Positions 663 through 64,000 are shown, numbered from the stretch's first letter. The stretch: 64,000 nucleotides of DNA from an uncultured virus (IMG/VR IMGVR_UViG_3300020439_001801) (IMGVR_UViG_3300020439_001801), one strand, 5' to 3'. Notes: a model not told the origin generated them from the letters alone. Numbers and translations: made by a program.

Positions 663-1961
663 TTAATCAACATAATTAAATGATAAAGTACCATAAGTAC
701 CAGCTAATCCTTGGTCAATTGCTCTAACCCTAAAATAATAAGTTTGTCCACCAACTAAACTAATTGATTGTCCAGCAAGATTTATAGATGTTGCTGACCA
801 TTCCGTTTCATCCCCATTATCTACTGGTGAACTATAATCAGAGTTTGGTGATAATGTCCAATCATAAGCAGTAATACCAGTAGTACCAACCGATGATGGT
901 GCTGTCCAACTTATAGTACCAGCCCCACTATTATATGTAATTGATGATGGTGCTCCAGGTGCTGCTAAATCAGTATGTGAATCTGAACCTTTGTTGTGAG
1001 TTAGATATCCATTTACTAAATAGGTATCTTGCACCTCAACATCCATCGATACTATCTCCACATCTTCGTTTTCTAATACAATAGATGTTACTTCAACTTC
1101 AGTTAATGAACCATCTACTGCTCTAATAAGTTTATCTCCCAATTCAATACTAATTAATCTTTTGAATCTGTACATTCCATCTGCTGAATCTTTTACCAAC
1201 ATCGGGTGTTCATGTGTACCTTTTACTTCACCATTATTAATATTGTATATTTTATTACTAAATGAATAAGTTATGTTAACAACTTTAACATTTTTTTGTG
1301 TTTCACCTAAATTATCAGTTGACCATTCTAAATAATTAGAATCAGAAGTTTCCGATAATCCTGCTAATGAGAATCCTTTTAATTCATCACCTTCTGATAA
1401 ATCTCCGATTTCAACCATCGTTCCATCTGCTTTTTCAATAGGTGAATCAGATACCAAACATAAAGATGCTGCGTTACCATCATATGAATCTACAGAATAT
1501 ACTGTTTTTGTTCTTGCTGAGTTATAGTTTGTAGCGTGGTCATTAAACCCATCAGCAAATGTTACCGATAATGTATGTGATGTTGCTCCTATTAAAGCGC
1601 CAGAGTTTACCATATCTCCAGCAGATAAAGTAATTGAACCACTACCAGCTCCAGCTTGTGAATATGATGCTGATGAAAAATAACTTCCACCACTCACACT
1701 CCAATCAAAATTTTTCTTTTGTTCTGATATCTTTGTAAATCTACCACCAGAACCAGTAAAGTTTAAAACATAATCTTCCGATGTGTTTTCTACTACATAT
1801 GTGAATCCTGATAAATTACCCACTTCATCTATAGCAAATGCTGACATTGATATTGGAGTTGCTACACTACCAGCTATAGTACCCATAGATTTGGTACTTT
1901 GGTCTGTAGCCGTTGCTAAGTTATTTAATGATAAAGTATCGCCTGATGATAGTGTTGCCAT
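663..1961 (-). CDS. Virion-type protein with internal Hint (intein-like) domain and C-terminal fibronectin type III domain
   Basis: Hint motifs CLVSDSPI, GTHEHP and YLVNGYLTHN. FN3 motifs ISWTAP, YDW and YYFRVRA. AGGAG RBS. Confidence 0.85.
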   Translation of the reverse strand: MATLSSGDTLSLNNLATATDQSTKSMGTIAGSVATPISMSAFAIDEVGNLSGFTYVVENTSEDYVLNFTGSGGRFTKISEQKKNFDWSVSGGSYFSSASYSQAGAGSGSITLSAGDMVNSGALIGATSHTLSVTFADGFNDHATNYNSARTKTVYSVDSYDGNAASLCLVSDSPIEKADGTMVEIGDLSEGDELKGFSLAGLSETSDSNYLEWSTDNLGETQKNVKVVNITYSFSNKIYNINNGEVKGTHEHPMLVKDSADGMYRFKRLISIELGDKLIRAVDGSLTEVEVTSIVLENEDVEIVSMDVEVQDTYLVNGYLTHNKGSDSHTDLAAPGAPSSITYNSGAGTISWTAPSSVGTTGITAYDWTLSPNSDYSSPVDNGDETEWSATSINLAGQSISLVGGQTYYFRVRAIDQGLAGTYGTLSFNYVD

Positions 1962-1969
1962 AAATTCTC

Positions 1970-2965
1970 CTATATGTTATAAATATTTAATAACGAATCA
2001 ATCCACAATTGTTTGTCTGAATAATTATCAATCATATAGTTTTTTATCTTATTGAACCAATAATTTTTCGTTTCATATGTATCACTACATATCTTATTAT
2101 AAATATCTACAAATTCAGTTTTAGATGAAACTCGGTATGGATACTCAAAATCTTTACACCAAGTTGAATGTAAAATAGGTAATTTTCCTCTATCTACTGC
2201 CTCAAATATACCATACCCAAAAGGTTCTGATGTGAATGCTGAATGAGATATTCCCCAATCCATATTGTAAAACTTATCTTTAAAGTTACTATAATAATGA
2301 TAAATCTTTGCTTTATCATAATTTAAACCAACTGCGTTTTTCCAAAATGTGTTAAACTCAAAAGAGTTTGTAAAAATAAAACATTTTTGATTTTCTAAAT
2401 AATGTGGATTTTTTCTACCTTCACATCTAGCAGCAAATCCTAATCCATTTGATTTACTTAAAGGTAAGTTATGTTTAAATTCATAATAATTATTAATTAC
2501 CTGATTCTTTATCAGAATATCAAATAAACCTACCCATATAGAATGAGTTGCCCATTCGTTTACTTCCTTTTCCCATTTTGAATCTAACCACGGATGCCAA
2601 CCGATTCTAGCATCTGTAACAACTTGTGATTTTAAAATATGGTCAACTGAATTATGTAAGATATTTGAATGAATCTTATCTTTGTTATTTACTATAGCTT
2701 TCATTGGAGTATAGTGTCCATGCAATATGTTTATTCTTCTTGCTCCATCACATATCTTTTCAAATTCACCAACATTATCTCCTTGCCAATGAGTTTCTAT
2801 TGGAAATTGAAAATCTTCAAATCCTTCGGGTTTGTTTCGGTGAATAAGTAAAACCGGTCTTACTTTTAAATGTGGTACAACGTTTTCTAAAAAATCATTT
2901 ACCCACAAATCAGTTCCAGCGTTGACCCAAGGCCCGCCACCAGTTGTGTAATAAACATCGTACAT
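1970..2965 (-). CDS. GT-B fold glycosyltransferase (GT4-like)
   Basis: N-terminal GG..AG.D.WV loop, R...RK.P and EPFGYGIFEAVDRGKLPI (E-x7-E motif). Paralogue of 60922..61908. Confidence 0.75.
   Translation of the reverse strand: MYDVYYTTGGGPWVNAGTDLWVNDFLENVVPHLKVRPVLLIHRNKPEGFEDFQFPIETHWQGDNVGEFEKICDGARRINILHGHYTPMKAIVNNKDKIHSNILHNSVDHILKSQVVTDARIGWHPWLDSKWEKEVNEWATHSIWVGLFDILIKNQVINNYYEFKHNLPLSKSNGLGFAARCEGRKNPHYLENQKCFIFTNSFEFNTFWKNAVGLNYDKAKIYHYYSNFKDKFYNMDWGISHSAFTSEPFGYGIFEAVDRGKLPILHSTWCKDFEYPYRVSSKTEFVDIYNKICSDTYETKNYWFNKIKNYMIDNYSDKQLWIDSLLNIYNI
1978..1986 (-). promoter_or_regulatory. Putative late promoter ATATTTATA
   Basis: Embedded in the 3' end of the GT gene, upstream of 1961. 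Confidence 0.6.
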
Positions 2966-4987
2966 TTATTTGATTTTTGATTCTAACTCTTCTACTCGTT
3001 TGATAAGTTCTTTATTTGATTCTATAAGTAGAGCTACTATCTTTTCATATTTTACGGCTTTGTATCCGTTATCTCTTGTTTCTACAATCTCTGGTAAAAC
3101 TTTTTCTACCTCTTGTGCAATTACACCTATATCTTTTTTACCTTTGAATACTTCGTGCTTATCATTCCATACGAATGTGTTACCACTTAGTAATTTAATT
3201 TTTTCATTTGGATTCTCAATTGGTGTGATGAAATCCTTATATCTCTCATCCGAAGAAGCGTATGCTACAACATCTTCACCAACATTAAGTGTTTTTGCGA
3301 TACCAACACCACCATCTATTACTACAGTACCAGTTGTTTTAGATGTTGATTGAGTAGTACCATCAAAGTTGACTATTCCAGCCATATCAGAACCATCAGT
3401 TGTTGTTCTAATTCTTTGAACATTGTTATATCTAAGTTCTACATAAGTTTTGGCTGTGTTTGATGTATCTGTACCTAATATTATTACGTTTTGTGCAGTA
3501 CCACTTGTATTTTCGCATTGGAAGTAAACTTCCCCAGCATGTCTTTTTGATTGGAAAAAAGTATTTGTACCATCATCATTAATTACAAAATCAGCACCTG
3601 TACCTATTTCAAGATTAGTACTATCGGGTACATTAAGACCACCACTAAATGTTATTTTTGAACCAGCACTATCAGTAGCATCACTTCTTAAAAATGAACC
3701 AGCTGATATTCCTCCTACAGTCTGTGCATTTGAACCTGTTGATGTTAAGAATCCACTATCGTTATTAAAGATTGAAAGAGGAATATTACCTGCTGTTGTT
3801 TTTCTTTCTGCATTTCCATCTAATACAATAAAGAAATCGCCAACAGAATTCGAAAATCCTGTTGTTTCAGAAAATTCTGAAAGGTCTAATGTGATACTTG
3901 GTGTTGTTGTTCCATCTTCAACATCTAAACCAGTACCTACTGTTACATTTGTTACTGTACCTGTATTAGTTGTAAATGCCGTTGAATTAAATGCGTTTGA
4001 ACCAAGAGTTCTTTTTGATAACTCATTACTAGAGTCTATCATTACTGCAGTTGTTTCTGTTGTGGCGGATAATCCAGTAAATTGTATTACATCTTCAGAT
4101 AGTAAAGTACCAGTAACAGTAGGATTAGCTATTTCTAAATTTCCAAATGATGTTATTTGAGCTGCTCCAGATATAATACCTTGTCCTAATTTTTTAGTAT
4201 ATAATGTATCTGATTCTGTTTCAGTATAATATCTTCCATCTAAATTTACTGTACCTGCAGTTGCGGTGGTAACGTGTCCATTAGAATCTAATGTAATTGT
4301 TAAATCTTGTAATACAGTACCATTTGAATTATTTTGTGATATATTTGAACCAGCACTTATATTTGGGTGTGCAGTTAAATAAGAACCAGTTGCTGCATTC
4401 AATGAAGTGTTTAATACTTCATCATCTAAATATGTTTTATCAATAACACTACCATTCCAAGTACCAGCAGATATTGTTCCTGCATCTGCGATACCACCAC
4501 CGAAAGTAGCAGCACCTGCTTCAGACATATCTAAGGTAAGAGCATCTATTGTTACTCCAGCATCTTGTCCTCTGAATATTATATCTTCATTATTTGCTTC
4601 TGATTTAATAATAAAATCTGAAGAATCTCTTTTAAATCTACCAAATGCAGTACCACCATCTTTTAATATGATATCAGTACCATCTACATCTATATTTAAA
4701 TCACCACCTATATCTAAGGTTAAATCACCACTATCTGAAATTGTAGAACCATTAATTGTAATATCATCTACTGTCAATTGTCCTACGATAGAAACTGAAC
4801 CTGTAGTTATGGAATCAGTAGTTACAATGTGTTCAATAGTAATAGGATTACCTTCAGCAGACTTATCTTTTTTAAAGAATACTCTACCATCGAATGTGTT
4901 AATTGCTATTTCCCCTAAAGCAAGTTGTGAAGTAGTAGGTACTTTACCTTCGGTTGATGAACGCCTTAATTTTATTGTCTGTGCCAT
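2966..4987 (-). CDS. Tail fibre/spike with C-terminal intramolecular chaperone (peptidase S74)
   Basis: N-terminal IKLRRS...P...L..GEIAIN..DG.VF fibre motif. C-terminal SSDERYK...GVIAQEVEKVLPE...V.YEKI plus coiled coil. Confidence 0.9.
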   Translation of the reverse strand: MAQTIKLRRSSTEGKVPTTSQLALGEIAINTFDGRVFFKKDKSAEGNPITIEHIVTTDSITTGSVSIVGQLTVDDITINGSTISDSGDLTLDIGGDLNIDVDGTDIILKDGGTAFGRFKRDSSDFIIKSEANNEDIIFRGQDAGVTIDALTLDMSEAGAATFGGGIADAGTISAGTWNGSVIDKTYLDDEVLNTSLNAATGSYLTAHPNISAGSNISQNNSNGTVLQDLTITLDSNGHVTTATAGTVNLDGRYYTETESDTLYTKKLGQGIISGAAQITSFGNLEIANPTVTGTLLSEDVIQFTGLSATTETTAVMIDSSNELSKRTLGSNAFNSTAFTTNTGTVTNVTVGTGLDVEDGTTTPSITLDLSEFSETTGFSNSVGDFFIVLDGNAERKTTAGNIPLSIFNNDSGFLTSTGSNAQTVGGISAGSFLRSDATDSAGSKITFSGGLNVPDSTNLEIGTGADFVINDDGTNTFFQSKRHAGEVYFQCENTSGTAQNVIILGTDTSNTAKTYVELRYNNVQRIRTTTDGSDMAGIVNFDGTTQSTSKTTGTVVIDGGVGIAKTLNVGEDVVAYASSDERYKDFITPIENPNEKIKLLSGNTFVWNDKHEVFKGKKDIGVIAQEVEKVLPEIVETRDNGYKAVKYEKIVALLIESNKELIKRVEELESKIK

Positions 4988-38084: not shown

Positions 38085-38108
38085 CACTAAATTGTAAAAA
38101 CGTAATTA

Positions 38109-41772: not shown

Positions 41773-41773
41773 A

Positions 41774-45079: not shown

Positions 45080-45089
45080 AATATTAGTT

Positions 45090-51550: not shown

Positions 51551-52139
51551 TTGCATCTCTTTTAGAAATTATCGGATTAGTACAAGGCCACTCTATATTG
51601 AACTTCTTACTATTCCATTTTATTGTTTGTTGCTTATCTACATCTACAAATTCACCTTCATATGCTAATTTGTAGTAGAATATAGAGTTTTTTTCCATCA
51701 CATAGTGTCCATTAGCAAAACCTGGCGGTATTAACACTTGTGTTTGTGTTGATGGTGATAAAATGTAAGTTTCCCAACTACCATATTGTGGATTTCTGTT
51801 GATATTACCACCTCTTACATCCAAAACTACCAAATATATCTTTCCATGCAGACAAGATACCATTTTCCAAGTCTTATTATCATAATGTAAACCCCTAAGT
51901 ACACCTTCTTCTGATTTTGAGTACCTATCGTGTTTAAACTCTACTCCTTTTTCTCTTTCTTCCAAAGGAATCAACCTATCATAGTAATCCGAGTGATATG
52001 TAGTGGATATTTCACCTCTTTGTTCGTGATATACTGATGGTTGTATGATTTTTACTCCACCAGTTAAAACTTCTGATGAGTAAATGTGAAAATCATTCCA
52101 ACTTCTTTCTTTGTAATATATACTACGTCCTATTGCCAT
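51534..52139 (-). CDS. rmlC: dTDP-4-dehydrorhamnose 3,5-epimerase family protein
   Basis: RG, S..GVLRGLHY, K.V.C..G.I..V.LD.R, IPPGFA.G and WP....IS.RD motifs. Confidence 0.9.
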   Translation of the reverse strand: MAIGRSIYYKERSWNDFHIYSSEVLTGGVKIIQPSVYHEQRGEISTTYHSDYYDRLIPLEEREKGVEFKHDRYSKSEEGVLRGLHYDNKTWKMVSCLHGKIYLVVLDVRGGNINRNPQYGSWETYILSPSTQTQVLIPPGFANGHYVMEKNSIFYYKLAYEGEFVDVDKQQTIKWNSKKFNIEWPCTNPIISKRDANGKDS

Positions 52140-53103: not shown

Positions 53104-53470
53104 ATTTGAATTCTTTTAAAATTTCATATTCTTCTGATGTTAGTTTTAAATTGTTTGGATTTTCTAAAATAAATTCAATATTCCCATTTTCTATAGAATC
53201 TCTTATCAAATTTATTGTACTATCTGCTAAATTAGAAAGTTTACAATCATTATCAATTACAATTTTGAATACAGATTCATTTTGGTGCTTAGAAAAATCC
53301 CTTATTGTAGTTTTTTTACCATCACTGGTATCAATGTGGTCTAATGTAAATGTATTCTTATCATAATTTACAATCATACTGTTTGCAAATATGGTTTTTA
53401 ACTTTGTTTTATCAAAACCATTTTTAACATATCCATCAGGACATAATATTTCAAATAACTGTTCTTTCAT
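53093..53470 (-). CDS. Hypothetical protein
   Basis: 125 aa ORF overlapping both neighbours in the operon. Confidence 0.6.
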   Translation of the reverse strand: MKEQLFEILCPDGYVKNGFDKTKLKTIFANSMIVNYDKNTFTLDHIDTSDGKKTTIRDFSKHQNESVFKIVIDNDCKLSNLADSTINLIRDSIENGNIEFILENPNNLKLTSEEYEILKEFKYEI

Positions 53471-54227
53471 CTCCTAAAATACTTACATCTAATGTTCTCC
53501 AAGGCTCAACATCATATATTTTTTTAATTAATCCAATGTTTATTTCTAAATTAAAACAATTTCCACTATTATCGTATGCCTTATACTTTGTTAATTCATT
53601 TGTATTTATCAAAAATATAGAATTTGATAAAGATTTTTTAAGATTTCTTTTTACATCTTTATTTTTTTCTAAAAAATCTTCTATTGTTTGAAATGTATGT
53701 AAAGTATCAAATAACCCAGCTCTATATAAATTATATTGGCATATTGCTTTATGCTCATCTGATAAATCATGTTCATAGTTTGCTATTCCAAAGTTAAATG
53801 GGGTATCACTATAATCATGCAATCCACCAATATACTCTATTTCATTTGAATATGTTTTACCATCATCTAAACAAGTTAATTTTGCTTTAAATTTTTTTGC
53901 TAATGAATCATGACTTATAATCATAACATATCTTTTATATAAATTTTCTTTACCAACATAAAATGATATATCATTAAAATGAGATTGTCCATCAATCACA
54001 TCCCAAAAATCCCAAGTAAACATATTTCTATTCTTAGCAAATACTCCCATATGTTTTCCTGGTCTACAAAAAATACAATGAGTATTACCAGTATTTACTT
54101 CATCCATTTGAAACTCTACATAAAAAGTAAAATCCTTTTGTGTAGATTCCCAAACATTTGTATCAGTAAATCTATAACTGTTGTTATTTGTAATAAACCA
54201 AGGCCTTTTGTGTAATATCTTTAACAT
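53451..54227 (-). CDS. Concanavalin A/LamG-like lectin-fold protein
   Basis: Resembles the inserted domain of the two GT7 genes (FT, .PG...G, D.SGN motifs). Confidence 0.5.
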   Translation of the reverse strand: MLKILHKRPWFITNNNSYRFTDTNVWESTQKDFTFYVEFQMDEVNTGNTHCIFCRPGKHMGVFAKNRNMFTWDFWDVIDGQSHFNDISFYVGKENLYKRYVMIISHDSLAKKFKAKLTCLDDGKTYSNEIEYIGGLHDYSDTPFNFGIANYEHDLSDEHKAICQYNLYRAGLFDTLHTFQTIEDFLEKNKDVKRNLKKSLSNSIFLINTNELTKYKAYDNSGNCFNLEINIGLIKKIYDVEPWRTLDVSILGDERTVI

Positions 54228-55642
54228 AGTGATTTACATTTATAATAAAATTCTTCTAACTCAGGAAAAGTTTGTAAAAAGTTTGTATTTCTCCTCTCAT
54301 CATGCGCATTAAAATATCTATAAAAGTTTTGCATTGACATTTTTAGATGTTTAGGGTCTACATCAGCATTCATCCAATCATATATTCTTTTTACTTTTTG
54401 TATTTCTATATCTGAGTATCCGATGTAGTTGTGGTCAAAAATTGGTACACCTTGAAAGAACATAAGTTTTGATTGTTCTAATACTGTATCCTTCCATTTT
54501 TGGTCTTGTAGTAATTGTACACTTTGATGCCAAGGATATCTTAGATATGATGAATCTAAAAATACCGCAGATGCCCAGTACCTATCATTTGTTCCATACT
54601 CTTGCTTTAACCCATAAATACCATCTATAAGTTTTATGTAATTAGGAACAGAAAGAAGTCCGTATGTTCCCATCACTGTGATATTAACTCTTGGACACTT
54701 AGTAAGTATTTTATTTAGATTATCCCAAAATCTATTAAATTCTAAACCTGTTCTAATGTACTCAGCTTGTTCACCCCAAGTATCAACTGATGTAAATATA
54801 ATAAATTCTTTAACTCTATCTTCATCACAAATTTTATTTATTTTATCAATAAATCTATCAACTAATTTATCATCAATACCCAAATTAGAGTTGATTGCTA
54901 ATTGTAAATTTTTGTTTGGATTCTTTTCTTCTATAATATAATCTAATACCTTCCAAGTATCTTTGGATAAAAGTGGTTCACCACCAGTGATTCTAAATGT
55001 ATGTAAATCTCTATACAAATCAGGCCACCATTTCCAAAATGCTTCTACATAAGGATTATGTTCAGTTTGTTTTTGAGGCCACTTATCTTCATCAATATGT
55101 CTTTGTTTAGAATTAAAATCATCTGAAGTTGGATAACCTCCAAACTTTTCAACTTCTTGCTGCCAAGTTGTTGAGTAAGCAGGTCCACAATAAGAACATT
55201 TAAAGTTACAAGTATGAGAGAATGCCACTTCTACATACTTTGGATTATAATCGGCTCTCCAATCGGATGTTGCTATTTCATCCATATGAGGTAAAGACCA
55301 ACTTTCATTAGATTTAAAAATTCTATCTGAAAATTGATTTGAGTTATCCTCTACATTCCAACAATAATCACACTCTTTAGGTCTTTTACCTTCAAGCATT
55401 TCTTTCCTTCTTCTCTTCTTAAATGAAGTATTGTGAAGAGCAGATGGATTTCTTTGAATCTCTCTTAAAGGTATCTTATGTGTTTTCGGATGGTGGCACG
55501 AATGTGTATGACCAGTTTGCATCTGTATCGTAACCTGTGTCCATTTTGCTAAACAAAATCCACATCCAACTTTATCTAATTTGTTTTTTGTGGATACGAA
55601 GTGTTTATTTTCGTGATGATTCCAATTATTTTCCGTTGACAT
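54221..55642 (-). CDS. Radical SAM protein with N-terminal Twitch-like domain
   Basis: CLAKW...SCHHP...C.YCW..E, CNFKCSYC....S..W and TGGEPL motifs. Confidence 0.92.
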   Translation of the reverse strand: MSTENNWNHHENKHFVSTKNKLDKVGCGFCLAKWTQVTIQMQTGHTHSCHHPKTHKIPLREIQRNPSALHNTSFKKRRRKEMLEGKRPKECDYCWNVEDNSNQFSDRIFKSNESWSLPHMDEIATSDWRADYNPKYVEVAFSHTCNFKCSYCGPAYSTTWQQEVEKFGGYPTSDDFNSKQRHIDEDKWPQKQTEHNPYVEAFWKWWPDLYRDLHTFRITGGEPLLSKDTWKVLDYIIEEKNPNKNLQLAINSNLGIDDKLVDRFIDKINKICDEDRVKEFIIFTSVDTWGEQAEYIRTGLEFNRFWDNLNKILTKCPRVNITVMGTYGLLSVPNYIKLIDGIYGLKQEYGTNDRYWASAVFLDSSYLRYPWHQSVQLLQDQKWKDTVLEQSKLMFFQGVPIFDHNYIGYSDIEIQKVKRIYDWMNADVDPKHLKMSMQNFYRYFNAHDERRNTNFLQTFPELEEFYYKCKSLC

Positions 55643-55655
55643 ATATTAATATATA

Positions 55656-57098
55656 TTAAAACTTTACATTTATCATTTTTGCCTTGGGGTTGATTTCTTC
55701 TATACTAACCAACTCATATTTTAGCTGCTTTATACCATCGGATTTATAATCCCATTTACCTTGCTGCATTTCCAAAACATATCTTCTTTCATTTCTTGCG
55801 GTTGTTTCACCTTTAGCCCACCTATCTTGTCCTTTATCATCTGATATTAATCCTTCATCCTTATGATATAAACAAAACATTCTTCCTTTTCTTCGATGTG
55901 GAATTGGTGGTTGTGATAATTTAATTATTTCTTCTCCAGTAGTTATTGTATCTACTTCACCATTATAACCATTACCACTAATATCTTTTGCTTCACCATT
56001 TTCAAATTCGTAGTGAAGTTTTAATCCATTTGATGGAATATTATTTGTTAGTTCTTTGATTTCATGAGCTTCTAATTTTCTATCCCATAACATTACCTTT
56101 GCTATATCACCTCTGAAGAATCTACTAGCATCTCTTTCACCAACTGATGTAGTATGCCCTAATGTAAATGGCATAGAACCATATCTTTTTAACTTACCAT
56201 CAAAACTAAGTGGTGAATGAGTACCATGTCCATGCCTTGCATCTGATTCATTACCATTTAAGTAAAAATGTATTTTATTATTCTCAGTATCAATTGATAA
56301 GGTTATCCAACTCCAATAATTTTCGTATCGTTTCATCCATTGATATAGAGCTTCTTTTTTGTGATTCCATAATAGTGATGTATATGCTCTACTATTGTTA
56401 TAACTTAATCCCCAATCGTAACCAGCTCTTCTAATTATTGGATATTCACAAAATCTTCTATCATAATCACCAACTAACCATATTGGTACTTTTTCTTCTT
56501 GTTGGTTTGCTTTTACCAATACTGAAACTGTATGTGATTTGGATGTTAGATGTGCTATACCTCTATCTACTGGGATTGTTACTTTTGAATTAGTACCATT
56601 GAACCTTAAAAAGTTTTGTTTACCAATTTGTAATTCTCTTACATTAGCATATCCCTCTAAATAACATCTCCAAAACAAATCATCATCTTCCATACCCCAA
56701 TCCCAATAATCATTTGAGTATCCATTGGTTTTTTCTACTTGTTCTTTATTAAAAAGTACTGCTCCACCAAAATATTCTTGATATTTCAGTTCGTAATTCA
56801 TTTGAGATATATTTGTTGCTATATGAATTGGAGTTTTTTCAGGAAAAGAATAATCACATCCTTCTTCTGGTATCATATCTATATCGTGCCAAACAATGTA
56901 ATCACATCCATCTTCAAACGCATGTTTTGCAGCTACATTTTTTGTTGCTCCTCTGTTAAATAACTTATCATCTACTTGATGAGCAAAGTACATACAATAA
57001 TCTATACCTTTGGATTCTAAATATGCTCCAACTTTTGGTACAAACTCTTTTAGATGAGCTTCTCTGTTTCTATATGGTACACAAACTCCTAACTTCAT
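55656..57098 (-). CDS. GT7 beta-1,4-galactosyltransferase-like enzyme with inserted LamG domain
   Basis: VPYRNR..HL, FNRG, HDID, YFGG and NGYSN.YW.WG.EDDD motifs, then LamG (F.G.I..V..W...L, D.SGNG..G), then L.H. Confidence 0.88.
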   Translation of the reverse strand: MKLGVCVPYRNREAHLKEFVPKVGAYLESKGIDYCMYFAHQVDDKLFNRGATKNVAAKHAFEDGCDYIVWHDIDMIPEEGCDYSFPEKTPIHIATNISQMNYELKYQEYFGGAVLFNKEQVEKTNGYSNDYWDWGMEDDDLFWRCYLEGYANVRELQIGKQNFLRFNGTNSKVTIPVDRGIAHLTSKSHTVSVLVKANQQEEKVPIWLVGDYDRRFCEYPIIRRAGYDWGLSYNNSRAYTSLLWNHKKEALYQWMKRYENYWSWITLSIDTENNKIHFYLNGNESDARHGHGTHSPLSFDGKLKRYGSMPFTLGHTTSVGERDASRFFRGDIAKVMLWDRKLEAHEIKELTNNIPSNGLKLHYEFENGEAKDISGNGYNGEVDTITTGEEIIKLSQPPIPHRRKGRMFCLYHKDEGLISDDKGQDRWAKGETTARNERRYVLEMQQGKWDYKSDGIKQLKYELVSIEEINPKAKMINVKF

Positions 57099-57574
57099 TA
57101 ATCCATTTCCATTTTTCTTTCAAAAAACTTTGCTGCTTCTTTTATTTCAGGATTTTGTTTGATTGTTTGCATAGCAATCATATCTTTCATCTTAGTTGTT
57201 GACCAACCATGTGCTCGAGTTGTATAAACAACCTTTGGTGGTAAGTCATCACCTGTGAATGATTTACCAATATAATCTTCACCTAAGATTCTTATATCGG
57301 GTTTAAAAAACTCTATCAATCCTCTGAGTTCTTCTTCTGTCTGATATACATATACTTCATCGATGTATCTTATAGCCATCAATGTACGATATCTTTCGTG
57401 TATAGGAATAACGGGTTTGTATTTTGATTTTCTATGTTCGGATGGGTCTCTATGTAGAAACACTATGAATTTATCACAATGTTGCTTAGCCGCTTCAAAC
57501 GTATAAACATAACCCGGATGAATTAAATCAAAATTACCAGCCGTAAATCCTACTATTTGTTTTTTATTTTTCAT
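57098..57574 (-). CDS. Cytidylyltransferase (TagD/RfaE-like)
   Basis: G.FDL.HPG, KP......R...L..I.Y.DEV, G.DY and R....STT motifs. Confidence 0.88.
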   Translation of the reverse strand: MKNKKQIVGFTAGNFDLIHPGYVYTFEAAKQHCDKFIVFLHRDPSEHRKSKYKPVIPIHERYRTLMAIRYIDEVYVYQTEEELRGLIEFFKPDIRILGEDYIGKSFTGDDLPPKVVYTTRAHGWSTTKMKDMIAMQTIKQNPEIKEAAKFFERKMEMD

Positions 57575-59019
57575 AATTCTGCTGTTATATAGTTGACTGT
57601 TTGAGTTCCTCTCTCAATACCAAATGTTAGTTTGTTATCACTTATAGTTTTGAATTTTAAAGAATCAATTCCATCTCGTCTCCAATTCGTTTTACCTTTT
57701 AAAACTTTATTGTAAAATCTAAGTTGGTTTTTACGAGTTTCTGTATAAATCCATTTATTTTCATAAAATCCATTATCTTCGTGAAATAATAATTTAAATT
57801 TAGATTTTCTTCTCCACGGAATTGTTATCTCCTGATAATCTTCTGTATGTGGAGTTGATATTCTATTACAATAGTGTATTTTTCCATTTGAACCATTACC
57901 ACTAAGTTCAATTAGTTTGTGATATGTAGATGCCTTCGCATCATATGCACATTCTAAACAATGTGGTGTGGTGTATCCCTCAAATCCTTCAGTAACACCA
58001 ATACCTAAGTTATTATATATAGCTTCTACTTGACCTGGCTCTAATGAATGATTCCAAATTGCTAATTGATTTATCAGCCCCTTAAAAGGTCTCCTATTAT
58101 TCATTGAACCCGGACCAGGTCTACCTAAATAAAAATATTTTTGATTGTGGTATGGTAATAATCTACCTTCAAATTCAGCTTCATCAATTAACTCACCATC
58201 TTGATATAGTTTAATAAACTTATTATATTGGTCTACAACCACCATAAGTGTAGTTCTTCTTTCTGTACCGATTGTTGATTTTAAACTTATACATTCTTTT
58301 TTAGATGTAAACGTTTCAAACTTAAATCGCTTAAATGAATTAAAAGTAAATCCAGTATCATAACCAGGTACTGATAAAATGGAATATTCATCTACTTCTA
58401 AGTTTTCACTTAATTCCATTTTATATGGTTCACATTCTATTAACATAGTGTAATTATCCAATCCAAATTTCATTGGTATTTTAACTTCACTATCATATCC
58501 ATTGAATTCTAAACCAGCGGTGTTCCAAGTTTTAATTGGTTGGTGTTTTAGATTTAAATCAAAAAAGTTTTCTTTACATCTGAATAATAAATCATCATCT
58601 TCATATCCCCATCCCCAATATTCGTTTGAATATCCATTTACTTTGTAATAATCCATTATAGGAAATAAAGTAACTCCTCCGAAATATGAATCGAAGATAA
58701 TTCTTTTCTCTCCTACATCAGATAGAAAGTTTGTAGCAAGATGAGTTGGTCTGTTTACATATGAATAATCAACATCCATAGGTAACATATCCACATCATG
58801 CAGAGCTACATAGGTACATTTTAACTTTTTTGCTCTTTCTACACCAATGTTAAGTAACTTACCTCTATTGAAAGGTTTATCATCAGCTTGTTCTACCACA
58901 ATAATTTCAAATGGTATCTTTTGCTTTTTAAGATGATTTGATATAGAAGGAATAAAATGGTTAAGATGTTCTCTACGATTTCTGTAAGGAACAACTATAC
59001 CAATTTTATTTTTCGCCAT
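57571..59019 (-). CDS. GT7-like glycosyltransferase with inserted LamG domain (paralogue)
   Basis: VPYRNR.EHL, FNRGKLLN.G, HDVD, YFGGV and NGYSNEYWGWGYEDDD motifs. Confidence 0.88.
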   Translation of the reverse strand: MAKNKIGIVVPYRNRREHLNHFIPSISNHLKKQKIPFEIIVVEQADDKPFNRGKLLNIGVERAKKLKCTYVALHDVDMLPMDVDYSYVNRPTHLATNFLSDVGEKRIIFDSYFGGVTLFPIMDYYKVNGYSNEYWGWGYEDDDLLFRCKENFFDLNLKHQPIKTWNTAGLEFNGYDSEVKIPMKFGLDNYTMLIECEPYKMELSENLEVDEYSILSVPGYDTGFTFNSFKRFKFETFTSKKECISLKSTIGTERRTTLMVVVDQYNKFIKLYQDGELIDEAEFEGRLLPYHNQKYFYLGRPGPGSMNNRRPFKGLINQLAIWNHSLEPGQVEAIYNNLGIGVTEGFEGYTTPHCLECAYDAKASTYHKLIELSGNGSNGKIHYCNRISTPHTEDYQEITIPWRRKSKFKLLFHEDNGFYENKWIYTETRKNQLRFYNKVLKGKTNWRRDGIDSLKFKTISDNKLTFGIERGTQTVNYITAEL

Positions 59020-59230
59020 CTATATATTTATCTTTCCAAAGTGATAAGTACCATTCCATTCTTGGTCCCCATTCTTCTTTATCGATTTCTTCAAACCATA
59101 AAGTAAGTGCATCTACTGAATTAGCTATCTTTTCCAATGCTTTAACTTTTCTTTCCTCTAATAGAGGGTCAAAGTTTCCACCATTAGCTGAGATACTTGC
59201 TTCTTCTACTTTTGCTGCTTTCTTTGCCAT
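59006..59230 (-). CDS. Small hypothetical protein
   Basis: 74 aa ORF within the operon. Confidence 0.65.
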   Translation of the reverse strand: MAKKAAKVEEASISANGGNFDPLLEERKVKALEKIANSVDALTLWFEEIDKEEWGPRMEWYLSLWKDKYIDGEK

Positions 59231-59235
59231 AATTT

Positions 59236-60096
59236 TTAAATTTTTAATATTCCTTTTGTTAATCTATTCCAATATTGATAATCCCAATGTTCGTTTTGAA
59301 TCGGTATGTTTCTAACTAAACCAAACATAGGATTATTAATATCAATTTTCCAATCGAAAACTTCGATTGCTTTGTACATCTTTTTGTATTCTTCCCAAAA
59401 AGTGTAATCTTCTTCTGTTTCTGAAACTTCTTTTAATCTTTCTAAAACAGTTGAATCCCATTTGAAGTGATGAACTTGTATAAATCCCTCACCTCTACCT
59501 GGTGGATATCTAAGTGGATGTTCTACACCCTCTTTACCCCACACATCCTTTCCATCAATGTGTGCATAATGTTGTCCGTTTGTTATTTGAATCTTTCCTT
59601 TCATTACACACACTTTGTTTGGACAAGCTCCACTAAGTGGATACCTAAAAAAACCACTATACGGAAATACTTCCCATATATTAGTTTCGCTATCTACGAT
59701 GGGAAAACTCCCATCCTCTCCAATCCTATCCAAGAATCCACCTGTGATAAACTCCCATCCTTTTACTTCGCATTCATCAATCATTTCTTCGATTGGCTTT
59801 GGATAAATCTGAATCTCATCATCATCCGATACAATCCACCAATCGTTTGGTTTAGTCATCTTAACTTCGTTATAAAGTTCAGTTACTTTTTCCCAATGAA
59901 ACTTTGGTTCAGTTACTACTTTGTAAGGAGTCCACCCCAAGTTTTCAATTTGTTCTAATATCCCATCGTTTTCATCTTGTCGATAAACTACGATAAAGAT
60001 ATTTTTTTTCTCCACAAATTGCTGATAGTATTCCAACATATGTGGTAACATAGTGATGTTATGCCCAACTACAGTTACTAAGTTTAAATCCTGCAT
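59236..60096 (-). CDS. GT-A fold glycosyltransferase (GT2-like)
   Basis: L...L.YY, W.IVSDDDE (DxD), K and G.H...HFKW motifs. Start likely MQDLNL at 60096. Confidence 0.7.
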   Translation of the reverse strand: MQDLNLVTVVGHNITMLPHMLEYYQQFVEKKNIFIVVYRQDENDGILEQIENLGWTPYKVVTEPKFHWEKVTELYNEVKMTKPNDWWIVSDDDEIQIYPKPIEEMIDECEVKGWEFITGGFLDRIGEDGSFPIVDSETNIWEVFPYSGFFRYPLSGACPNKVCVMKGKIQITNGQHYAHIDGKDVWGKEGVEHPLRYPPGRGEGFIQVHHFKWDSTVLERLKEVSETEEDYTFWEEYKKMYKAIEVFDWKIDINNPMFGLVRNIPIQNEHWDYQYWNRLTKGILKI

Positions 60097-60863
60097 CTTT
60101 GTATCAGTGTCAACCCAGTTGTAGATGGTTTTTCTTTCATCACTCCGTTGTTGAAGAAATTGAAAAGTTCCCATTCGTTACTTTCTTTTAGTTCTTTTAT
60201 GAGTTTATTAGGTCCATCAAATGGAGCATGATGGTTTTTTTCTTTTACATCTTCTGTTACGATGAGTTCTTTTTCAAAAGATTCATCTGTATCGTGGATT
60301 GAAATTACACCATAATCCGATAAGATACTTGAGTAAAGAGTAAAATCATTTTTAACATCATCATACGAATGACCCGCATCTATGTGTAGGTAATCTATCT
60401 TTATATCTTCCTTAACAAAGAAGTTATAAAATGCGTTTTCGGTGGTATCTAAGATAACTCTACAATCGAAGTTTTTTCTAAAGAATGAACGTTTATCCGT
60501 CCAATCAGTAAATCCTCCTACTCCGTTATCTGCATCAACTACGAATGTAGTACCACAATCACCCCACTCCATTTGTTTTAGACCTGTAAATATTTTTTGG
60601 TCATGCAAATCTATTCTCGCTTGTGTCATTATACGAGGAATAAATCCACCACCACTTCCTAAACATACACATACCTTTGCTCTCATCATTTGTATGGTAG
60701 AATATATAATCATACCATCACCTAAATGTAAATCAGTTGCCCCATGTGTCCATCTATATGGAACGGGTACAATATCAGTAAAAGGTTTACCATTAGTATC
60801 CCTTTTTTTGACTTGATTGTTTGATATGTATTTTTCTATTAAACCTAAATTAAGTAAAGACAT
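60084..60863 (-). CDS. Class I SAM-dependent methyltransferase (Methyltransf_24-like)
   Basis: LGSGGG and IDYLHIDAGHSY..V..DF......L...G.I..HD motifs. Confidence 0.85.
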   Translation of the reverse strand: MSLLNLGLIEKYISNNQVKKRDTNGKPFTDIVPVPYRWTHGATDLHLGDGMIIYSTIQMMRAKVCVCLGSGGGFIPRIMTQARIDLHDQKIFTGLKQMEWGDCGTTFVVDADNGVGGFTDWTDKRSFFRKNFDCRVILDTTENAFYNFFVKEDIKIDYLHIDAGHSYDDVKNDFTLYSSILSDYGVISIHDTDESFEKELIVTEDVKEKNHHAPFDGPNKLIKELKESNEWELFNFFNNGVMKEKPSTTGLTLIQRCRI

Positions 60864-60887: not shown

Positions 60888-60896
60888 TATAAATAT
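60888..60896 (-). promoter_or_regulatory. Putative late promoter ATATTTATA heading the glycosylation operon
   Basis: Intergenic, upstream of 60863. Confidence 0.7.
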
Positions 60897-60921
60897 ATAA
60901 AAATATAGAAAACAATAAAAA

Positions 60922-61908
60922 TTAAAATAGATTTTTTATCTTATCTCTCCATTCCCATTTGTTATCATATTTTACCATCCATTCGGATAATCTCATCCAA
61001 TTATCCAATTGCTCTGAGTAAGAATCTTTACATATGATTTCTACCATAGAATCAAACTCTTCTTTTGATGATGCTCTATATTTGTAATCTACATCTCCCC
61101 AATCGGAATGTAGTATTGGAAGTTTTCCGTAATCAACGGCTTGAAAGATTGAATATCCAAAAGGTTCATTGGTGTGGCAAGAATGTGAGATACTCCAATC
61201 TTTACACATAAATAAATCTAATATCTCAGAATCCCATTGATAAAATTTTATACCACTAAAGTTATACTGATTTGTTTCTACTATATTTTTCCAATCATAT
61301 TTACCACTTAAAACAAATCCTCTATGATTATCCAAATAGTGAACATTTTTACGAGATTCAATACGAGAAGTAAATCCAATTTTAGAATCTGATAATTTTT
61401 CTAGTAATAAATCTTCTTTAAATTCATAAAAGTTTGGAATTGTTATAGTATTATCAGGATAATCTATAAATAATTGTGAATCTGTTAATCCTATCCAAAT
61501 TCTTTGTTTACAATACTTCATCAAATCATTAACTGCTTCAGTATCTATGTTAGTTTGGAATTGTTTTGTAGAATCACCATACTTTAACATATCGGGTAAA
61601 TATGCATGTACAAATATATTACCCCATTTATCTTTATGTTTCCAAAGATGTTCTCTTTTGTGATAATTCGCATGTAAGAAGTGAATTTCTTGACAATCTT
61701 CTAATAATTTTTCTGATTTAATCCAATCATCGTAATGGAAATGATAATTTGTTAAGGATGTTTCAAAACCATCAGGTTTTCTACCATCTACAAAAATAAA
61801 ATAATCATCTGAAAGTTGTGGAAGTACTAAATCAATAAAATGATTTGTCCATACATCAGCTCCACCTTGTATAATATTTCCGAAACCAGTTGTTACTAAT
61901 AATTTCAC
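60922..61908 (-). CDS. GT-B fold glycosyltransferase (GT4-like), paralogue of 1970..2965
   Basis: GGAD.W.N.F, R.E.RKN.HYL and EPFGYSIFQAVDYGKLPILH motifs. Confidence 0.72.
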   Translation of the reverse strand: MKLLVTTGFGNIIQGGADVWTNHFIDLVLPQLSDDYFIFVDGRKPDGFETSLTNYHFHYDDWIKSEKLLEDCQEIHFLHANYHKREHLWKHKDKWGNIFVHAYLPDMLKYGDSTKQFQTNIDTEAVNDLMKYCKQRIWIGLTDSQLFIDYPDNTITIPNFYEFKEDLLLEKLSDSKIGFTSRIESRKNVHYLDNHRGFVLSGKYDWKNIVETNQYNFSGIKFYQWDSEILDLFMCKDWSISHSCHTNEPFGYSIFQAVDYGKLPILHSDWGDVDYKYRASSKEEFDSMVEIICKDSYSEQLDNWMRLSEWMVKYDNKWEWRDKIKNLF

Positions 61909-64000
61909 TCAGAACCGCTTATTTGATTTTCTAATTGAGTTACCTTTGCTGATAACTCTTGTATTGCCTTTATCATAGGAGCAATCATTTCTGTATATCG
62001 TAAACCATATGTTGTACTATCATATGTCATACTACCAGTATCTAAATTATCTTGTGTTATTTGGGAATCTGTATATATTCTACTTCCTGATGGATGTGTT
62101 TTTATCCAAGTTCTACTTTTTATATATCCAGCAAAATCATCAGTATGTACCGAAGAAGATGCAAGAGATTCACTTACCTCTTGTGCAATCAAACCATAAT
62201 GAGTTCTATTACTACTTCCACTAATCCATTGATATTTAACTGGATTTAAAGAATTAACAAAATTTAATCCTAAATCAGAACCACTAATATTTGTTTTTAA
62301 ATCTCTATCAGATGTTTGAATACTACCATTTGTTGCGAAAATATCATCCCATCTTTTTGCAGAACTACCTATATCTTTTGAATTATCAGCTGAGGGTAAT
62401 ACATTACAAGCACCAAATACCGCTTCTCCAAGACTTGATGCAGGATAGATGACTACATCACCACCAGTTGTGAAATCATCTGTGAATGTCCTTAATTCTA
62501 AATCAACATCAGTACCGAATACACGCATGTTACCATGTGAGTATATCGAACCTCTGGCACTACCATCATTGTTCAACCATCTTATACCTTGATAATCAGA
62601 AGTAGAAGATGCCCCTAATATATACATTCCCCAAAAATCATCATCTCCGTTAAAACTATCTATTTGTCCTAAATAAGCAGCTACATCATATTGTGCTATC
62701 TGAGTCGGGTCTTCAATTCCACTTCTTCTTGCTACAGCCACACCTGAATCTAATGCCAATTCACCAGAACTTGATAGAAATAAAGATGGAGTAGATATTA
62801 CTCCAGATGAACTGATAAATGAACCATTTGCTGCGAATCTTCCATCTATTCCACCACCATTGGCGGTAAATCCAACACTTAAATCCCCAGCGAAGGTTGC
62901 ATCGCCAGCTGAACTAAGTGTAATTCCATTTTCTGCACTACCAATCTGAACACCAGTATTTGATAATTGTATTCTTGCCGTAGAACCATCTAATAATTCC
63001 AAACCTGAAGATGATATTGCTAAGTGTTCTGTTGATGTTGGTCCTATTGTTGTTCTTGTACCATAACTTGCTAATATATTATTAGAAGTATCTTTTAAGG
63101 CCATACCACTTGAATTTAAAACAACTTGGGAAACATAAGATGAAGTATGACTATTTAAATTTGTATTTACACTGTCTTGAGATTGTGTAAAATCATTAAG
63201 TGGTGTTAAATCAACACTAGGTGAACCATTTGTCAATACAATAGAACCACCAATTTCTAATGTTGAACCATTCCATCTTAAATAGTTATTTGCATCACTA
63301 CCAGTTAGGAAAAATTCACCACTTGATGACATATAAGTTTTCCATTGGTTTGTATCATAGAATCCCATATTTTCTGAACCTAAGAATAAACCTGAACCAG
63401 CTGGAGTTGGTGTTTTTGTTAACTTACCAGTAGAAGGGTCTACCGCACCACTTTCAGATGCTGATAGAGCTGCATCAGCTGAAAATGCTGAACCACTAAG
63501 TACAGAATTATCTCCAGCTATGGTAGCAAATGCCGAACCACTCAATACCGCATTTTCATTTCCAGTGATAGCTATTGATGCTGATAACGAACCACTAAGA
63601 GTTGCATTATTTGCTGCCGTAGTAGCAAAGTTCTCAGCATTTGTTTGAGCTGCTGATGCTGATAGTGATGCACTTAATACTGCATCCGTATTTCCGATTA
63701 TAGCCAATGAAGCTGATTCAGCTGAAGCTTGGTTAGATGCTGTAATATCTGCTCCTAATGATGCCGTAGCAATCTGTAGATTTTGTGTTTGTAACTCTAA
63801 AGATTGTGTAGCTGCTTGTAAAGATGATGTAGCAGCTGCTAACTCCTGTGAGAAGTTTGTTGGGTCTCCCAATCCAGCAATAGTTGAGGATTGAATATTC
63901 GTACTAGCTATCTGTACTACTCCACCTTCAACACTTAAAATATCACCAGCATCTGCTATACCACTATTCTTTACATTAATAGATGCTTCTAATCCTAACG
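61905..64000 (-). CDS. Tail fibre with S74 chaperone; 5' end outside the window
   Basis: Frame stays open from 63872 to the window edge. C-terminal TSDRDLK.NI....LGL.FVN.L.PV.Y...HYGLIAQEV...LRY.E.IAP.IKAIQEL. Confidence 0.9.
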   Translation of the reverse strand, partial: LGLEASINVKNSGIADAGDILSVEGGVVQIASTNIQSSTIAGLGDPTNFSQELAAATSSLQAATQSLELQTQNLQIATASLGADITASNQASAESASLAIIGNTDAVLSASLSASAAQTNAENFATTAANNATLSGSLSASIAITGNENAVLSGSAFATIAGDNSVLSGSAFSADAALSASESGAVDPSTGKLTKTPTPAGSGLFLGSENMGFYDTNQWKTYMSSSGEFFLTGSDANNYLRWNGSTLEIGGSIVLTNGSPSVDLTPLNDFTQSQDSVNTNLNSHTSSYVSQVVLNSSGMALKDTSNNILASYGTRTTIGPTSTEHLAISSSGLELLDGSTARIQLSNTGVQIGSAENGITLSSAGDATFAGDLSVGFTANGGGIDGRFAANGSFISSSGVISTPSLFLSSSGELALDSGVAVARRSGIEDPTQIAQYDVAAYLGQIDSFNGDDDFWGMYILGASSTSDYQGIRWLNNDGSARGSIYSHGNMRVFGTDVDLELRTFTDDFTTGGDVVIYPASSLGEAVFGACNVLPSADNSKDIGSSAKRWDDIFATNGSIQTSDRDLKTNISGSDLGLNFVNSLNPVKYQWISGSSNRTHYGLIAQEVSESLASSSVHTDDFAGYIKSRTWIKTHPSGSRIYTDSQITQDNLDTGSMTYDSTTYGLRYTEMIAPMIKAIQELSAKVTQLENQISGSE

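Follow-up and report, generated by a model that had tools for sequence, protein, structure and literature searches.

A serine motif on outward-facing virion proteins and a fibre-adjacent sugar island in an uncultured marine T4-like phage: a candidate virion glycosylation system

The 64,000-nucleotide stretch IMGVR_UViG_3300020439_001801 from IMG/VR (below, the window, i.e. the whole stretch of DNA that was analysed) comes from an uncultured marine T4-like phage and comprises a block of virion genes and, beside the fibre genes, a sugar island of 20 kb; the phage belongs to the lineage of three cultured relatives, Flavobacterium phage vB_FspM_immuto, Microcystis phage Mel-JY01 and Rhodothermus phage RM378 (immuto, Mel-JY01 and RM378 in the following). 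The analysis concerns the tripeptide [ST][GAS]S, which an earlier note on this DNA had taken for the acceptor sequon of a phage-encoded glycan coat, and the genes for glycosyltransferases (GTs) and sugar-nucleotide enzymes that accompany it. All substantial open reading frames (ORFs) of the window lie on the minus strand (Table 1), the GC content is 29-35%, and no tRNA genes were found. Pfam and PHROGs matches identify a T4-type virion module, and seven fibre or fibre-like proteins are encoded, three of them with an S74 chaperone domain. Among deposited phages, those most similar in the major capsid protein (MCP) are an uncultured phage of 484 kb (53%), Mel-JY01 (50%), immuto (49%) and RM378 (38%), and a related MCP is encoded on at least 599 viral contigs. 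As a whole-genome proxy we use G020, a complete viral contig of 213.6 kb that is fully syntenic with the window, keeps the island and encodes an MCP about 77-79% identical to that of the window.

Motif counts in the window and across the lineage

On the outward-facing proteins (most of the fibres and the neck, and the tail sheath in G020), the tetrapeptide hydrophobic-Ser-[Gly/Ala/Ser]-Ser occurs about six times as often as local composition predicts. Counts of [ST][GAS]S in 50 window ORFs were compared with 1000 whole-protein shuffles per protein and with local-composition shuffles, in which residues were permuted inside segments of 8-30 amino acids (aa). Ten exterior proteins contain 222 copies against 94.7 expected, SGS alone accounting for 84 against 18.0. 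The sharpest form of the motif, [IVLF]S[GAS]S, is found 92 times in the exterior set (14.6 expected) and once in 35 interior proteins and enzymes (1.5 expected), in which [ST][GAS]S reaches 7 against 11.7; the portal, TerL and the protease contain no copy of the tripeptide, and nearly all enzymes likewise none. The excess in the fibres survives local shuffling (203 against 77-82, z 14-17), and the two types of shuffles together rule out composition alone as its cause. Thus, both the expectation that Ser and Gly content would not explain the exterior counts and the impression, gained by eye, that the motif is rare in the portal, terminase, protease, internal proteins and enzymes are borne out, the latter set being at zero or below expectation.

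The order of residues matters as well: the count is 203 for [ST][GAS]S and 155 for S[GAS][ST], compared with 73-98 for the remaining four residue orders, and the third position requires Ser, not Thr. Control patterns are flat in the exterior set (S[GAS]T, SG[^S], D[ST][AILVMT] and N-x-[ST]); the last two were considered as host-type sequons, D[ST][AILVMT] being the general O-glycosylation motif of Bacteroidota, and were rejected for lack of enrichment. A repeated DNA word or a recent duplication was likewise rejected as the cause, by a frame test and by the scarcity of tandem arrays. AGTGGT is in frame in 106 of its 109 within-gene occurrences, which places the selection on the motif at the protein level, and the preference for AGT is a general codon-pair effect (AGT encodes 64-73% of the serines that precede Gly and 17-20% of the others, in exterior and interior proteins alike). 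The flanks of SGS carry an information content below 1 bit; position -1 is hydrophobic, and Gln occupies position +4 in about 20 of the 73 SGS. These 20 or so belong to a module 'G(I/V)(I/V)SGSxQ(I/L)', while T[SA]S occurs in a module 'SLNx[FY]T[SA]S' and in 'TTSS' coiled-coil heptads. The sequon as formulated earlier therefore lumps together at least three contexts, of which the free-standing hydrophobic-SGS is one.

The main carrier is the giant fibre of 2588 aa (127 against 48.3 expected, z 12.6 in whole-protein shuffles), with 46 SGS, 31 of them preceded by I, V, L or F. Its copies are not recent duplications, since just two short tandem DNA arrays were found; no solved structure was found for the fibre repeat. 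Enrichment is also evident in the 1189-aa fibre (27 against 12.6), in the 655-aa fibre or tail-spike (23 against 9.1) and in two smaller proteins of the fibre cluster (Table 1). The statement that the motif saturates all fibre proteins holds for five of the seven, but the 432-aa and 673-aa proteins, which form a distal cluster (663-4987) flanking a GT4-like gene, are at expectation. In the neck protein all the sites that had been cited are present, and the enrichment persists in both types of shuffles (5 against 1.4, p.011 for whole-protein and p.002-.008 for local shuffles). The gp15-like protein had been listed as a further carrier, which is true of the window (3 against 0.5, p.013 in whole-protein shuffles, borderline in local ones) and of its G020 homologue (5 against 0.8) but not of the clade, as only 2 of 17 homologues are enriched. 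The MCP contains all five of the sites named for it (residues 125, 174, 187, 223 and 238), every one in the N-terminal variable or insertion region, but its enrichment in the window is marginal (5 against 1.9, p.036 in whole-protein shuffles; not significant in local ones, p ~.12). These sites fall outside the HK97-like core (residues 322-540), which aligns to residues 271-521 of T4 gp23 with Z up to 12.2.

Homologues extend these counts. In 72 full-length MCP homologues and the window MCP the mean is 4.9 motifs against 2.0 expected, with at least twice the expectation in 54 of 73; among the neck homologues it is 4.1 against 1.06, with at least twice the expectation in 51 of 58. The MCPs of the clade contain 356 motifs in total (175-184 expected), and 321 of these (90%) lie within the region that corresponds to window residues 120-260, spread over 59 positions. 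One site is strongly conserved (SAS 187, retained in 55 of 72 homologues). In this variable part of the MCP the positions of the motif turn over and the count is maintained. Whole-genome scans, based on our own ORF calls and local shuffles, identified enriched ORFs in G001 (5/94), G007 (8/184), G002 (10/245), immuto (10/199), Mel-JY01 (13/221) and RM378 (4/142), as well as in G020 (11/245), where the tail sheath is among them (13 against 4.1) and the non-virion proteins hold 57 copies against 81 expected. The outgroups have few or no enriched proteins: 0 of 24 virion proteins in T4, 1 of 183 ORFs in phage Melnitz and 2 of 179 in phage Molly. A generic property of phage fibres is ruled out by these three phages, and the motif is a trait of the lineage, since the genomes of the clade are enriched and those of T4, Melnitz and Molly are not.

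Table 1. Positions of the features discussed, counted along the whole window (expected motif counts from shuffled sequences)
Feature	Position	Strand	Remarks
Virion protein, 432 aa	663-1961	-	phrog match; not motif-enriched, 3 vs 4.4 expected
GT4-like (GT-B) paralogue, 331 aa	1970-2965	-	embedded among distal fibre genes
Fibre with S74 chaperone, 673 aa	2966-4987	-	phrog match; not enriched, 3 vs 3.4 expected
Fibre, 1189 aa	5000-8569	-	C-terminal S74 intramolecular chaperone, Peptidase_S74 E 5.8e-18
Fibre, 694 aa	8682-10766	-	motif 17 vs 8.5 expected, p.003
Small fibre-associated protein, 199 aa	10892-11491	-	nine motif sites vs 2.9 expected, p.001
Giant fibre, 2588 aa	11521-19287	-	gp10-like phrog_677 segment, DUF7310 coiled coils, cadherin-like region
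gp15-like tail-sheath stabiliser	19975-21087	-	three motif sites
Neck protein (head-tail adaptor, gp13/14-like)	21546-22691	-	five motif sites
MCP, gp23 type	22807-24429	-	Gp23 E 3.8e-78
Acidic scaffold-like protein		-	part of the head module of the window
Ribosomal protein S21 gene	25772-26038	-	Pfam E 2e-13
Prohead protease	30551-31147	-	Pfam/PHROGs
Portal	32899-34629	-	Pfam/PHROGs
TerL	35103-36683	-	Pfam/PHROGs
1169-aa protein	38109-41618	-	own promoter-like motif; N-terminal CTP_transf_like E 2.2e-8
Soluble glycan island (predicted)	41774-60863	-	gap-free, headed by promoter-like motif at 60888
Four paralogues (457, 465, 390, 335 aa)	41774-43147, 43144-44541, 47821-48828, 49752-50924	-	hhalign paralogy
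Split TPP-dependent E1-like enzyme	50909-51556 and 44531-45079	-	Pfam/NCBIfam
Twitch radical-SAM enzymes, two	54221-55642 and 45090-46223	-	Pfam/NCBIfam
SDR epimerases/dehydratases, three	52123-53103, 48797-49762, 46854-47837	-	Pfam/NCBIfam
RmlC-like epimerase	51534-52139	-	Pfam/NCBIfam
GT7-LamG, two proteins of ~480 aa	57571-59019 and 55656-57098	-	Pfam Glyco_transf_7N and 7C above cut-offs
RfaE-II/TagD-like nucleotidyltransferase	57098-57574	-	RfaE-II 69.7 bits, far below 181.5 cut-off
Weak GT2_4 match, 312 aa	59236-60174	-	below Pfam cut-off
Methyltransferase	60084-60863	-	Pfam/NCBIfam
Promoter-like motif TATATTTATA	60888-60897	-	heads island operon; other exact copies 619, 22720, 32869, 35080, 41637
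GT4-like (GT-B) GT, 328 aa	60922-61908	-	between fibre gene and island; predicted fold
Fibre/tail-spike, 655 aa from first start	61905-63872	-	frame open to window end; Peptidase_S74 E 1e-12

The sugar island and its glycosyltransferases

The island sits between a fibre gene and TerL, and the matches to Pfam and NCBIfam agree with the earlier description of sugar-nucleotide enzymes and GTs embedded in the structural block. Among the former is a thiamine pyrophosphate (TPP)-dependent enzyme of the E1/transketolase type, whose alpha-like and beta-like halves are encoded 6 kb apart and both match a fused PHROG family, phrog_34187. Pairs of TPP enzymes of this type attach two-carbon branches to deoxysugars in antibiotic pathways. 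Kyte-Doolittle analysis covered 26 proteins, namely those of the island, of three adjacent genes (36683-41618) and the 331-aa GT4-like paralogue; it revealed no hydrophobic stretch in any island protein, with a single borderline segment in the product of 50909-51556. No gene for a priming phosphoglycosyltransferase, flippase, polymerase or ligase was recognised in the island. The neighbouring 1169-aa protein was considered as a conserved 'writer' of the motif and dropped, as its conservation is limited to an N-terminal nucleotidyltransferase domain of about 180 aa (NMNAT- or cytidylyltransferase-like), which is present in 10 of 24 related records and followed by very different C-termini in proteins of 598-1651 aa. 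Its residues 200-1169 gave no match, and no solved structure was found beyond the NMNAT-like N-terminus.

The promoter-like element TATATTTATA matches the window exactly six times, always on the gene strand and between genes, against 1.39 matches expected (0 of 100 shuffles reach six); two of the copies head the island operon (60888) and the gene of the 1169-aa protein (41637). Judged from its sequence and placement, this element shows a probable co-regulation by a phage promoter-like signal. The claim that the island stands under the same promoter motif as the virion genes is right as far as the shared TATATTTATA goes, but G020, with 20 exact sites of which 19 are intergenic, has it also in front of a nuclease gene and other non-structural genes, and the use of the motif as proof of late timing was dropped on this evidence. 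Three studies (X15/X16, X17 and X19) supply RNA-library contigs that cover 44-61 kb of the window at 90-99% likeness; these contigs do not prove transcription, since they carry no information on strand or level and could reflect DNA carry-over. Near-identical DNA of the segment 54001-64000 (63-99% of sampled words) is present in marine metagenome runs of several studies, and also in four small runs that carry a single coded-organism label.

About nine GT-like genes had been counted at this locus. Five are supported, namely the two GT7-LamG proteins, the two GT4-like proteins and a weak GT2_4 match, but nine is too many. Residues 3-148 of the 482-aa GT7-LamG protein align to residues 64-210 of beta4GalT1 (E 7.9e-28), and the DVD and WGWGYEDDD motifs are kept; the match covers chain residues 64-210 of 287 and is followed by the LamG domain. 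The family has 2090 matches, unnamed and confined to phage-like contigs, and a motif-rich giant ORF lies within 10 kb of 25 of 80 GT7-LamG loci. The 328-aa protein has no Pfam match, and among its 404 homologues none of the 120 listed has a precomputed Pfam domain. Its AlphaFold2 model (pLDDT 90.1, pTM 0.87) retrieved GlgM, PimA, BshA and MshA as the top Foldseek matches (probability 1.0, TMq 0.60-0.69), and the predicted structure supports assignment to the GT-B fold, with members of GT4 as the nearest solved relatives. Among named language-model clusters, the one closest to the 328-aa protein is that of the DNA alpha-glucosyltransferases, which serves as a lead only. The 331-aa paralogue, which has a homologue 84% identical in G020, matches the 328-aa profile with hhalign probability 100 (E 5e-101).

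Four further island proteins are paralogues with a common C-terminal domain, in which R, E, E-K and Y-D positions are invariant. They belong to a family with at least 12,983 representatives at 50% identity, many of which are tandem two-domain proteins of about 800 aa. None of 25 sampled relatives has a Pfam or GT domain, two profiles found no relative in the PDB (the 457-aa and 465-aa proteins gave low-complexity helical matches alone), and hhalign comparisons with our own GT profiles were negative. The block 'F.ENE..YISEKV' of these paralogues may resemble the motif of GT10 fucosyltransferases; a Pfam search for GT10 found nothing, with a positive control that was itself silent. Searches of the atlas and of PHROGs with the unassigned island proteins returned nothing useful.

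With respect to the rest of the head module, the S21 gene lies between the scaffold-like protein and the internal proteins and has homologues in G001, G002, G007 and G020.

Glycosyltransferases in related genomes

GT7-LamG genes are found in just 2 of 19 long related contigs and are absent from the complete genomes G002 (253 kb) and G007, in which the window's GT4-like genes and most of the island are missing as well. The island is common to G001 and G020, and its slot holds other genes in G002 and is empty in G007. Pfam scans of 96 of the 184 ORFs of G007 and 115 of the 245 ORFs of G002 (ORFs of <170 or >1300 aa, those at piece boundaries and 13 known structural homologues being omitted) identified sugar and GT islands in both, not homologous to that of the window, with GT9-like and PfkB genes in G002. 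The window's GT4-like profile is absent from immuto, Mel-JY01, RM378, Molly and Melnitz; GT7N was not found in these five phages either, in a search whose positive control stayed silent. As side observations, the portal gene of G007 (L089:162-3188, 1008 aa) carries an intein (Intein_splicing E 3.9e-16), and the TerL ORF of this genome (58144-60141) is also longer (665 aa against 526); G002 encodes two proteins similar to TonB-dependent receptors, a heme oxygenase and a bilin reductase (L101:180-2900, L111:13072-15048, L112:3386-4560).

A phylogenetic profile, in which proteins of G020 were retained if common to G002, G007, immuto and Mel-JY01 and absent from Melnitz and Molly, yielded 26 clade-specific proteins out of 245, 21 of which were scanned for families. 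This revealed a conserved cluster outside the window, composed of a GT2 (207 aa), an unknown protein of 420 aa and a GT4-like protein (463 aa; matches to Glycos_transf_1 and 'GT4-conflict'). The GT4-like gene of this cluster is present in 14 of the 21 records searched, including all eight complete ones, and absent from Molly and Melnitz; the identity of its product stays at 59-65% even in jumbo relatives, in which that of the MCP is just 39-48%. The cluster as such is present in seven motif-positive genomes, accounts for most of the GT1 and GT2 matches in immuto, Mel-JY01 and RM378, and is lacking in Molly and Melnitz, both searched whole (T4 was searched in part). Since the motif is clade-wide and the window island is not, the conserved cluster is the more likely source of an enzyme that would read the motif.

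The cluster (139-152 kb in G020, 191-197 kb in G002) is flanked by genes of a formyltransferase, a HAD-NTP-transferase and a Glyco_trans_1_2 protein, and a PD-(D/E)XK nuclease gene comes after it. Near the cluster there are two genes of the Mom family (150.9-152.5 kb in G020, 180.4-182.1 kb in G002). In Mel-JY01 the conserved GT4-like gene takes the form of two adjacent open frames (83444-84929, matching query residues 3-177 and 176-462).

A further complete genome, G032 (336 kb), combines the conserved GT4-like gene (59% identical) with homologues of most of the window island at 42-62% identity, including both GT7-LamG proteins, the GT2-like protein, the methyltransferase, a radical-SAM enzyme, both TPP halves, RmlC and the SDRs. 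Five fibre ORFs stand beside this island (226-245 kb and 294-296 kb), with Ser contents of 18-28%, Gly contents of 16-22% and 22-103 SGS each.

Readings of the motif and comparison with known systems

The best reading of the exterior motif is, in our opinion, virion O-glycosylation at the motif serines, albeit as a tentative preference that may well prove wrong. Soluble phage GTs would O-glycosylate these serines in the cytoplasm while the virion parts fold and assemble; the enzyme reading the motif would be encoded by the clade-conserved GT2/420-aa/GT4-like cluster, and the window island, with its two GT7-LamG proteins, two GT4-like proteins, branched- or deoxy-sugar pathway and methyltransferase, would build or extend a strain-specific glycan. 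Fibres, neck and capsid would thereby acquire a variable coat of sugars. The confinement of the motif to outward-facing proteins of several folds (fibres, neck, gp15-like protein, G020 sheath) fits such a coat, and so do its selection at the protein level, its need for Ser at the third position and the turnover of its MCP sites at a maintained count. A soluble island beside the fibre genes, the phage promoter-like motif in front of it and a GT4-like gene inside the fibre cluster would fit it as well. A stricter two-tier version, in which a conserved GT2/GT4-like 'writer' O-glycosylates hydrophobic-Ser-small-Ser on every outward-facing protein and the islands diversify the glycan between strains, would amount to a variable, O-antigen-like coat on a bacterial virus; it is possible but rather unlikely to hold.

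Several observations weigh against virion glycosylation. The proposal of an acceptor sequon keeps its footing in the confinement of the motif to exterior proteins, but the window's GTs do not track the motif. The co-occurrence that had been anticipated between them is not seen for the window's own set: G002, G007, immuto, Mel-JY01 and RM378 are motif-positive without these GTs, and in G002 and G007, with their non-homologous islands, the enrichment is equal or stronger. The conserved cluster does co-occur with the motif, though the comparison sets one clade against three outgroups and in effect amounts to a single, phylogenetically confounded contrast; moreover, its neighbourhood of a PD-(D/E)XK nuclease, two Mom-family genes and ribonucleotide reductase (RNR) is a setting of DNA metabolism. 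In G032 just 2 of 387 ORFs pass the local shuffle, the sheath, neck, MCP and baseplate being at expectation, and four of its five fibres show a 1.6-2-fold excess over whole-protein shuffles, with hydrophobic-SxS near expectation. This genome indicates that the GTs can exist without the wider motif stamp, although SGS-rich fibres still adjoin its island. Part of the motif count in the window lies within longer structural modules (SGSxQ, SLNxFTAS and TTSS heptads), TATATTTATA is no proof of late or structural timing because it also heads non-structural genes in G020, and the monomer model of the MCP (pLDDT 56.4) is too poor for computing the accessibility of the motif serines. The case for virion glycosylation consists of sequence statistics and gene content.

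The strongest rival is a purely structural origin, in which the motif is a structural or biophysical signature (tight turns, strand ends, hydration or weak adhesion to polysaccharides) and the sugar genes serve another target. We regard it as a serious possibility, if on the whole an unlikely one. It would account for the modules just mentioned, with about 20 of 73 SGS in SGSxQ and T[SA]S in SLNx[FY]T[SA]S and TTSS contexts, for the hydrophobic residue before the motif and the alternating serines, which suit strand-turn geometry, for the conserved MCP site SAS 187, which lies in a predicted helix, for the persistence of the motif across relatives with differing sets of GTs, and for G032, which keeps the GTs without the wider stamp. 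On the other hand, enrichment of this one tetrapeptide extends over unrelated folds, namely those of the fibres, neck and sheath and of the insertion region of the MCP; the flanks carry little information, and the MCP sites turn over among many positions rather than stay fixed. The homologues with these folds in T4 lack enrichment altogether, and the non-virion proteins of G020 and of the window tend to depletion.

Two other rivals leave the motif unrelated to the sugar genes. The island could modify the host surface (O-chain or capsule) during infection, e.g. to block superinfection or the trapping of progeny on debris, which we consider distinctly unlikely. Modification of host O-chains is the explanation favoured for fibre-adjacent islands of GT and rfaE genes in PMC7029224, the islands are hypervariable between close relatives, and the nearest solved relatives of the 328-aa fold include WaaG, PimA and WbnH. 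Lipid-linked acceptors could be served despite the lack of membrane helices in the island, because GT4 and GT2 enzymes of lipopolysaccharide (LPS) and capsule synthesis are typically peripheral and without such helices. Against host-surface modification stand the lack of priming phosphoglycosyltransferase, flippase, polymerase and ligase genes among those seen in the island, its co-orientation with the virion genes under the same promoter-like motif, the small gain that a lytic phage would draw from a 20-kb host-surface pathway, and the motif itself, which would be left unexplained. Alternatively, the phage GTs could hypermodify the phage's own DNA with sugars, as in T4 glucosylation and the glycan systems acting on 5-hydroxymethylcytosine (5hmC); this appears very improbable. 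Phage GT-A and GT-B enzymes that add mono- to trisaccharides, including heptose, to 5hmC are documented, their clusters can adjoin structural genes, and about 65% of GT contigs have no base-modification partner, which speaks against DNA as the target (bioRxiv 10.1101/2023.12.21.572611). The 'GT4-conflict' match of the conserved cluster, its nuclease, Mom-family and RNR neighbours and the language-model lead from the 328-aa protein to DNA alpha-glucosyltransferase are in line with DNA modification. However, C5 cytosine methyltransferase was found in none of five related genomes in a search whose positive control worked, G020 has a ThyS-family gene that encodes a canonical thymidylate synthase (ThyA; 344.9 bits, cut-off 327) and lies far from the islands, and the window island, which by its gene content would make elaborate branched or deoxy sugars, sits among fibre genes. 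TET/JBP was found in none of the five genomes either, a result that is uninformative since the positive control was silent.

If virion glycosylation is true, phages that are abundant in the sea and in fresh water make their own glycan coat, which varies between strains and is attached at a recognisable sequon, with consequences for adsorption, host range, virion stability, sticking to marine polysaccharides and particles, and rates of grazing or decay. The large 'LPS-gene' islands that aquatic phages carry, whose genes are currently annotated as auxiliary ones for the host surface, would be read differently, and a function would be at hand for GT7-LamG, for the GT4-like family and for the dark family of the four paralogues. 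If it is false, one phage lineage nonetheless bears on its exterior virion proteins a signature under strong selection that calls for an explanation. With three members of the clade in culture, the idea lends itself to direct tests. Literature searches, with supplements outside their scope, yielded no account of the motif, nor any of glycosylated virions in the lineage.

Glycosylation of virions by phage GTs (in mycobacteriophages), glycosylation in giant viruses and serine glycosylation by TibC and AAH are all known. Freeman et al. (in 2023) reportedly showed by chemical means that phage-encoded GTs glycosylate mycobacteriophage virions, and the glycans are said to reside on C-terminal extensions of capsid and tail-tube proteins and to require one or two GTs. 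The window shares with that system soluble phage GTs near structural genes (two GT7-LamG and two GT4-like, one of the latter inside the fibre cluster) and virion surface proteins as the targets proposed here; it differs in that the candidate sites come from sequence and form a dispersed tetrapeptide on many proteins of a T4-like aquatic phage with a 20-kb island. In the serine-rich-repeat adhesins, the GT4-type GT-B enzymes GtfA and GtfB act in the cytoplasm on alternating Ser-x-Ser repeats. GtfC is among the fold matches of the 328-aa protein, at rank 43, but the match is a generic GT4 one, with PimA, GlgM and BshA ranking above GtfC, and no GtfB-type or accessory Sec family was found among the 49 window proteins scanned; moreover, the window motif is dispersed, without a long dipeptide array (the G032 fibres excepted).

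A parallel in specificity may be drawn with TibC and AAH, cytoplasmic GT-B enzymes that glycosylate many serines in loops of the repetitive beta-helical surface proteins TibA and AIDA-I; TibC modifies serines, not threonines, in the TibA repeats (PMC4358343). By analogy, the Ser-not-Thr specificity of the window motif would have a precedent in TibC. A homologue of ADP-heptose-type nucleotidyltransferases is present in the window island (for its score see Table 1); no BAHT or GT9 homologue was found among the window proteins, and the substrates here would be virion proteins. With the animal beta-1,4-galactosyltransferases 1 and 7 (GT7; PDB 2ae7 and 4irp), the phage GT7 core shares the DVD and WGWGxEDDD motifs, but the contiguous match covers just part of the catalytic domain, and the phage enzymes, which have no membrane anchor, continue beyond residue ~165 with a LamG/ConA-like domain.

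With respect to genomic organisation, the window island resembles the 'host recognition clusters' of pelagimyophages and cyanomyophages, hypervariable fibre-adjacent islands rich in GTs, rfaE-type genes and dehydratases, in being a large hypervariable island of the structural region beside the tail fibres; the window phage belongs to another gp23 lineage, and neither a virion-protein motif nor virion glycosylation is described in the available part of that work (PMC7029224). Finally, the capsids and fibrils of chloroviruses and mimiviruses are glycosylated by virus-encoded cytoplasmic pathways. These systems have eukaryotic hosts, and their N-linked or fibril glycans have been demonstrated chemically, but they share with the system proposed here a virus-encoded, host-independent sugar-nucleotide pathway and soluble GTs that decorate the particle at atypical sequons (PMC9614988).

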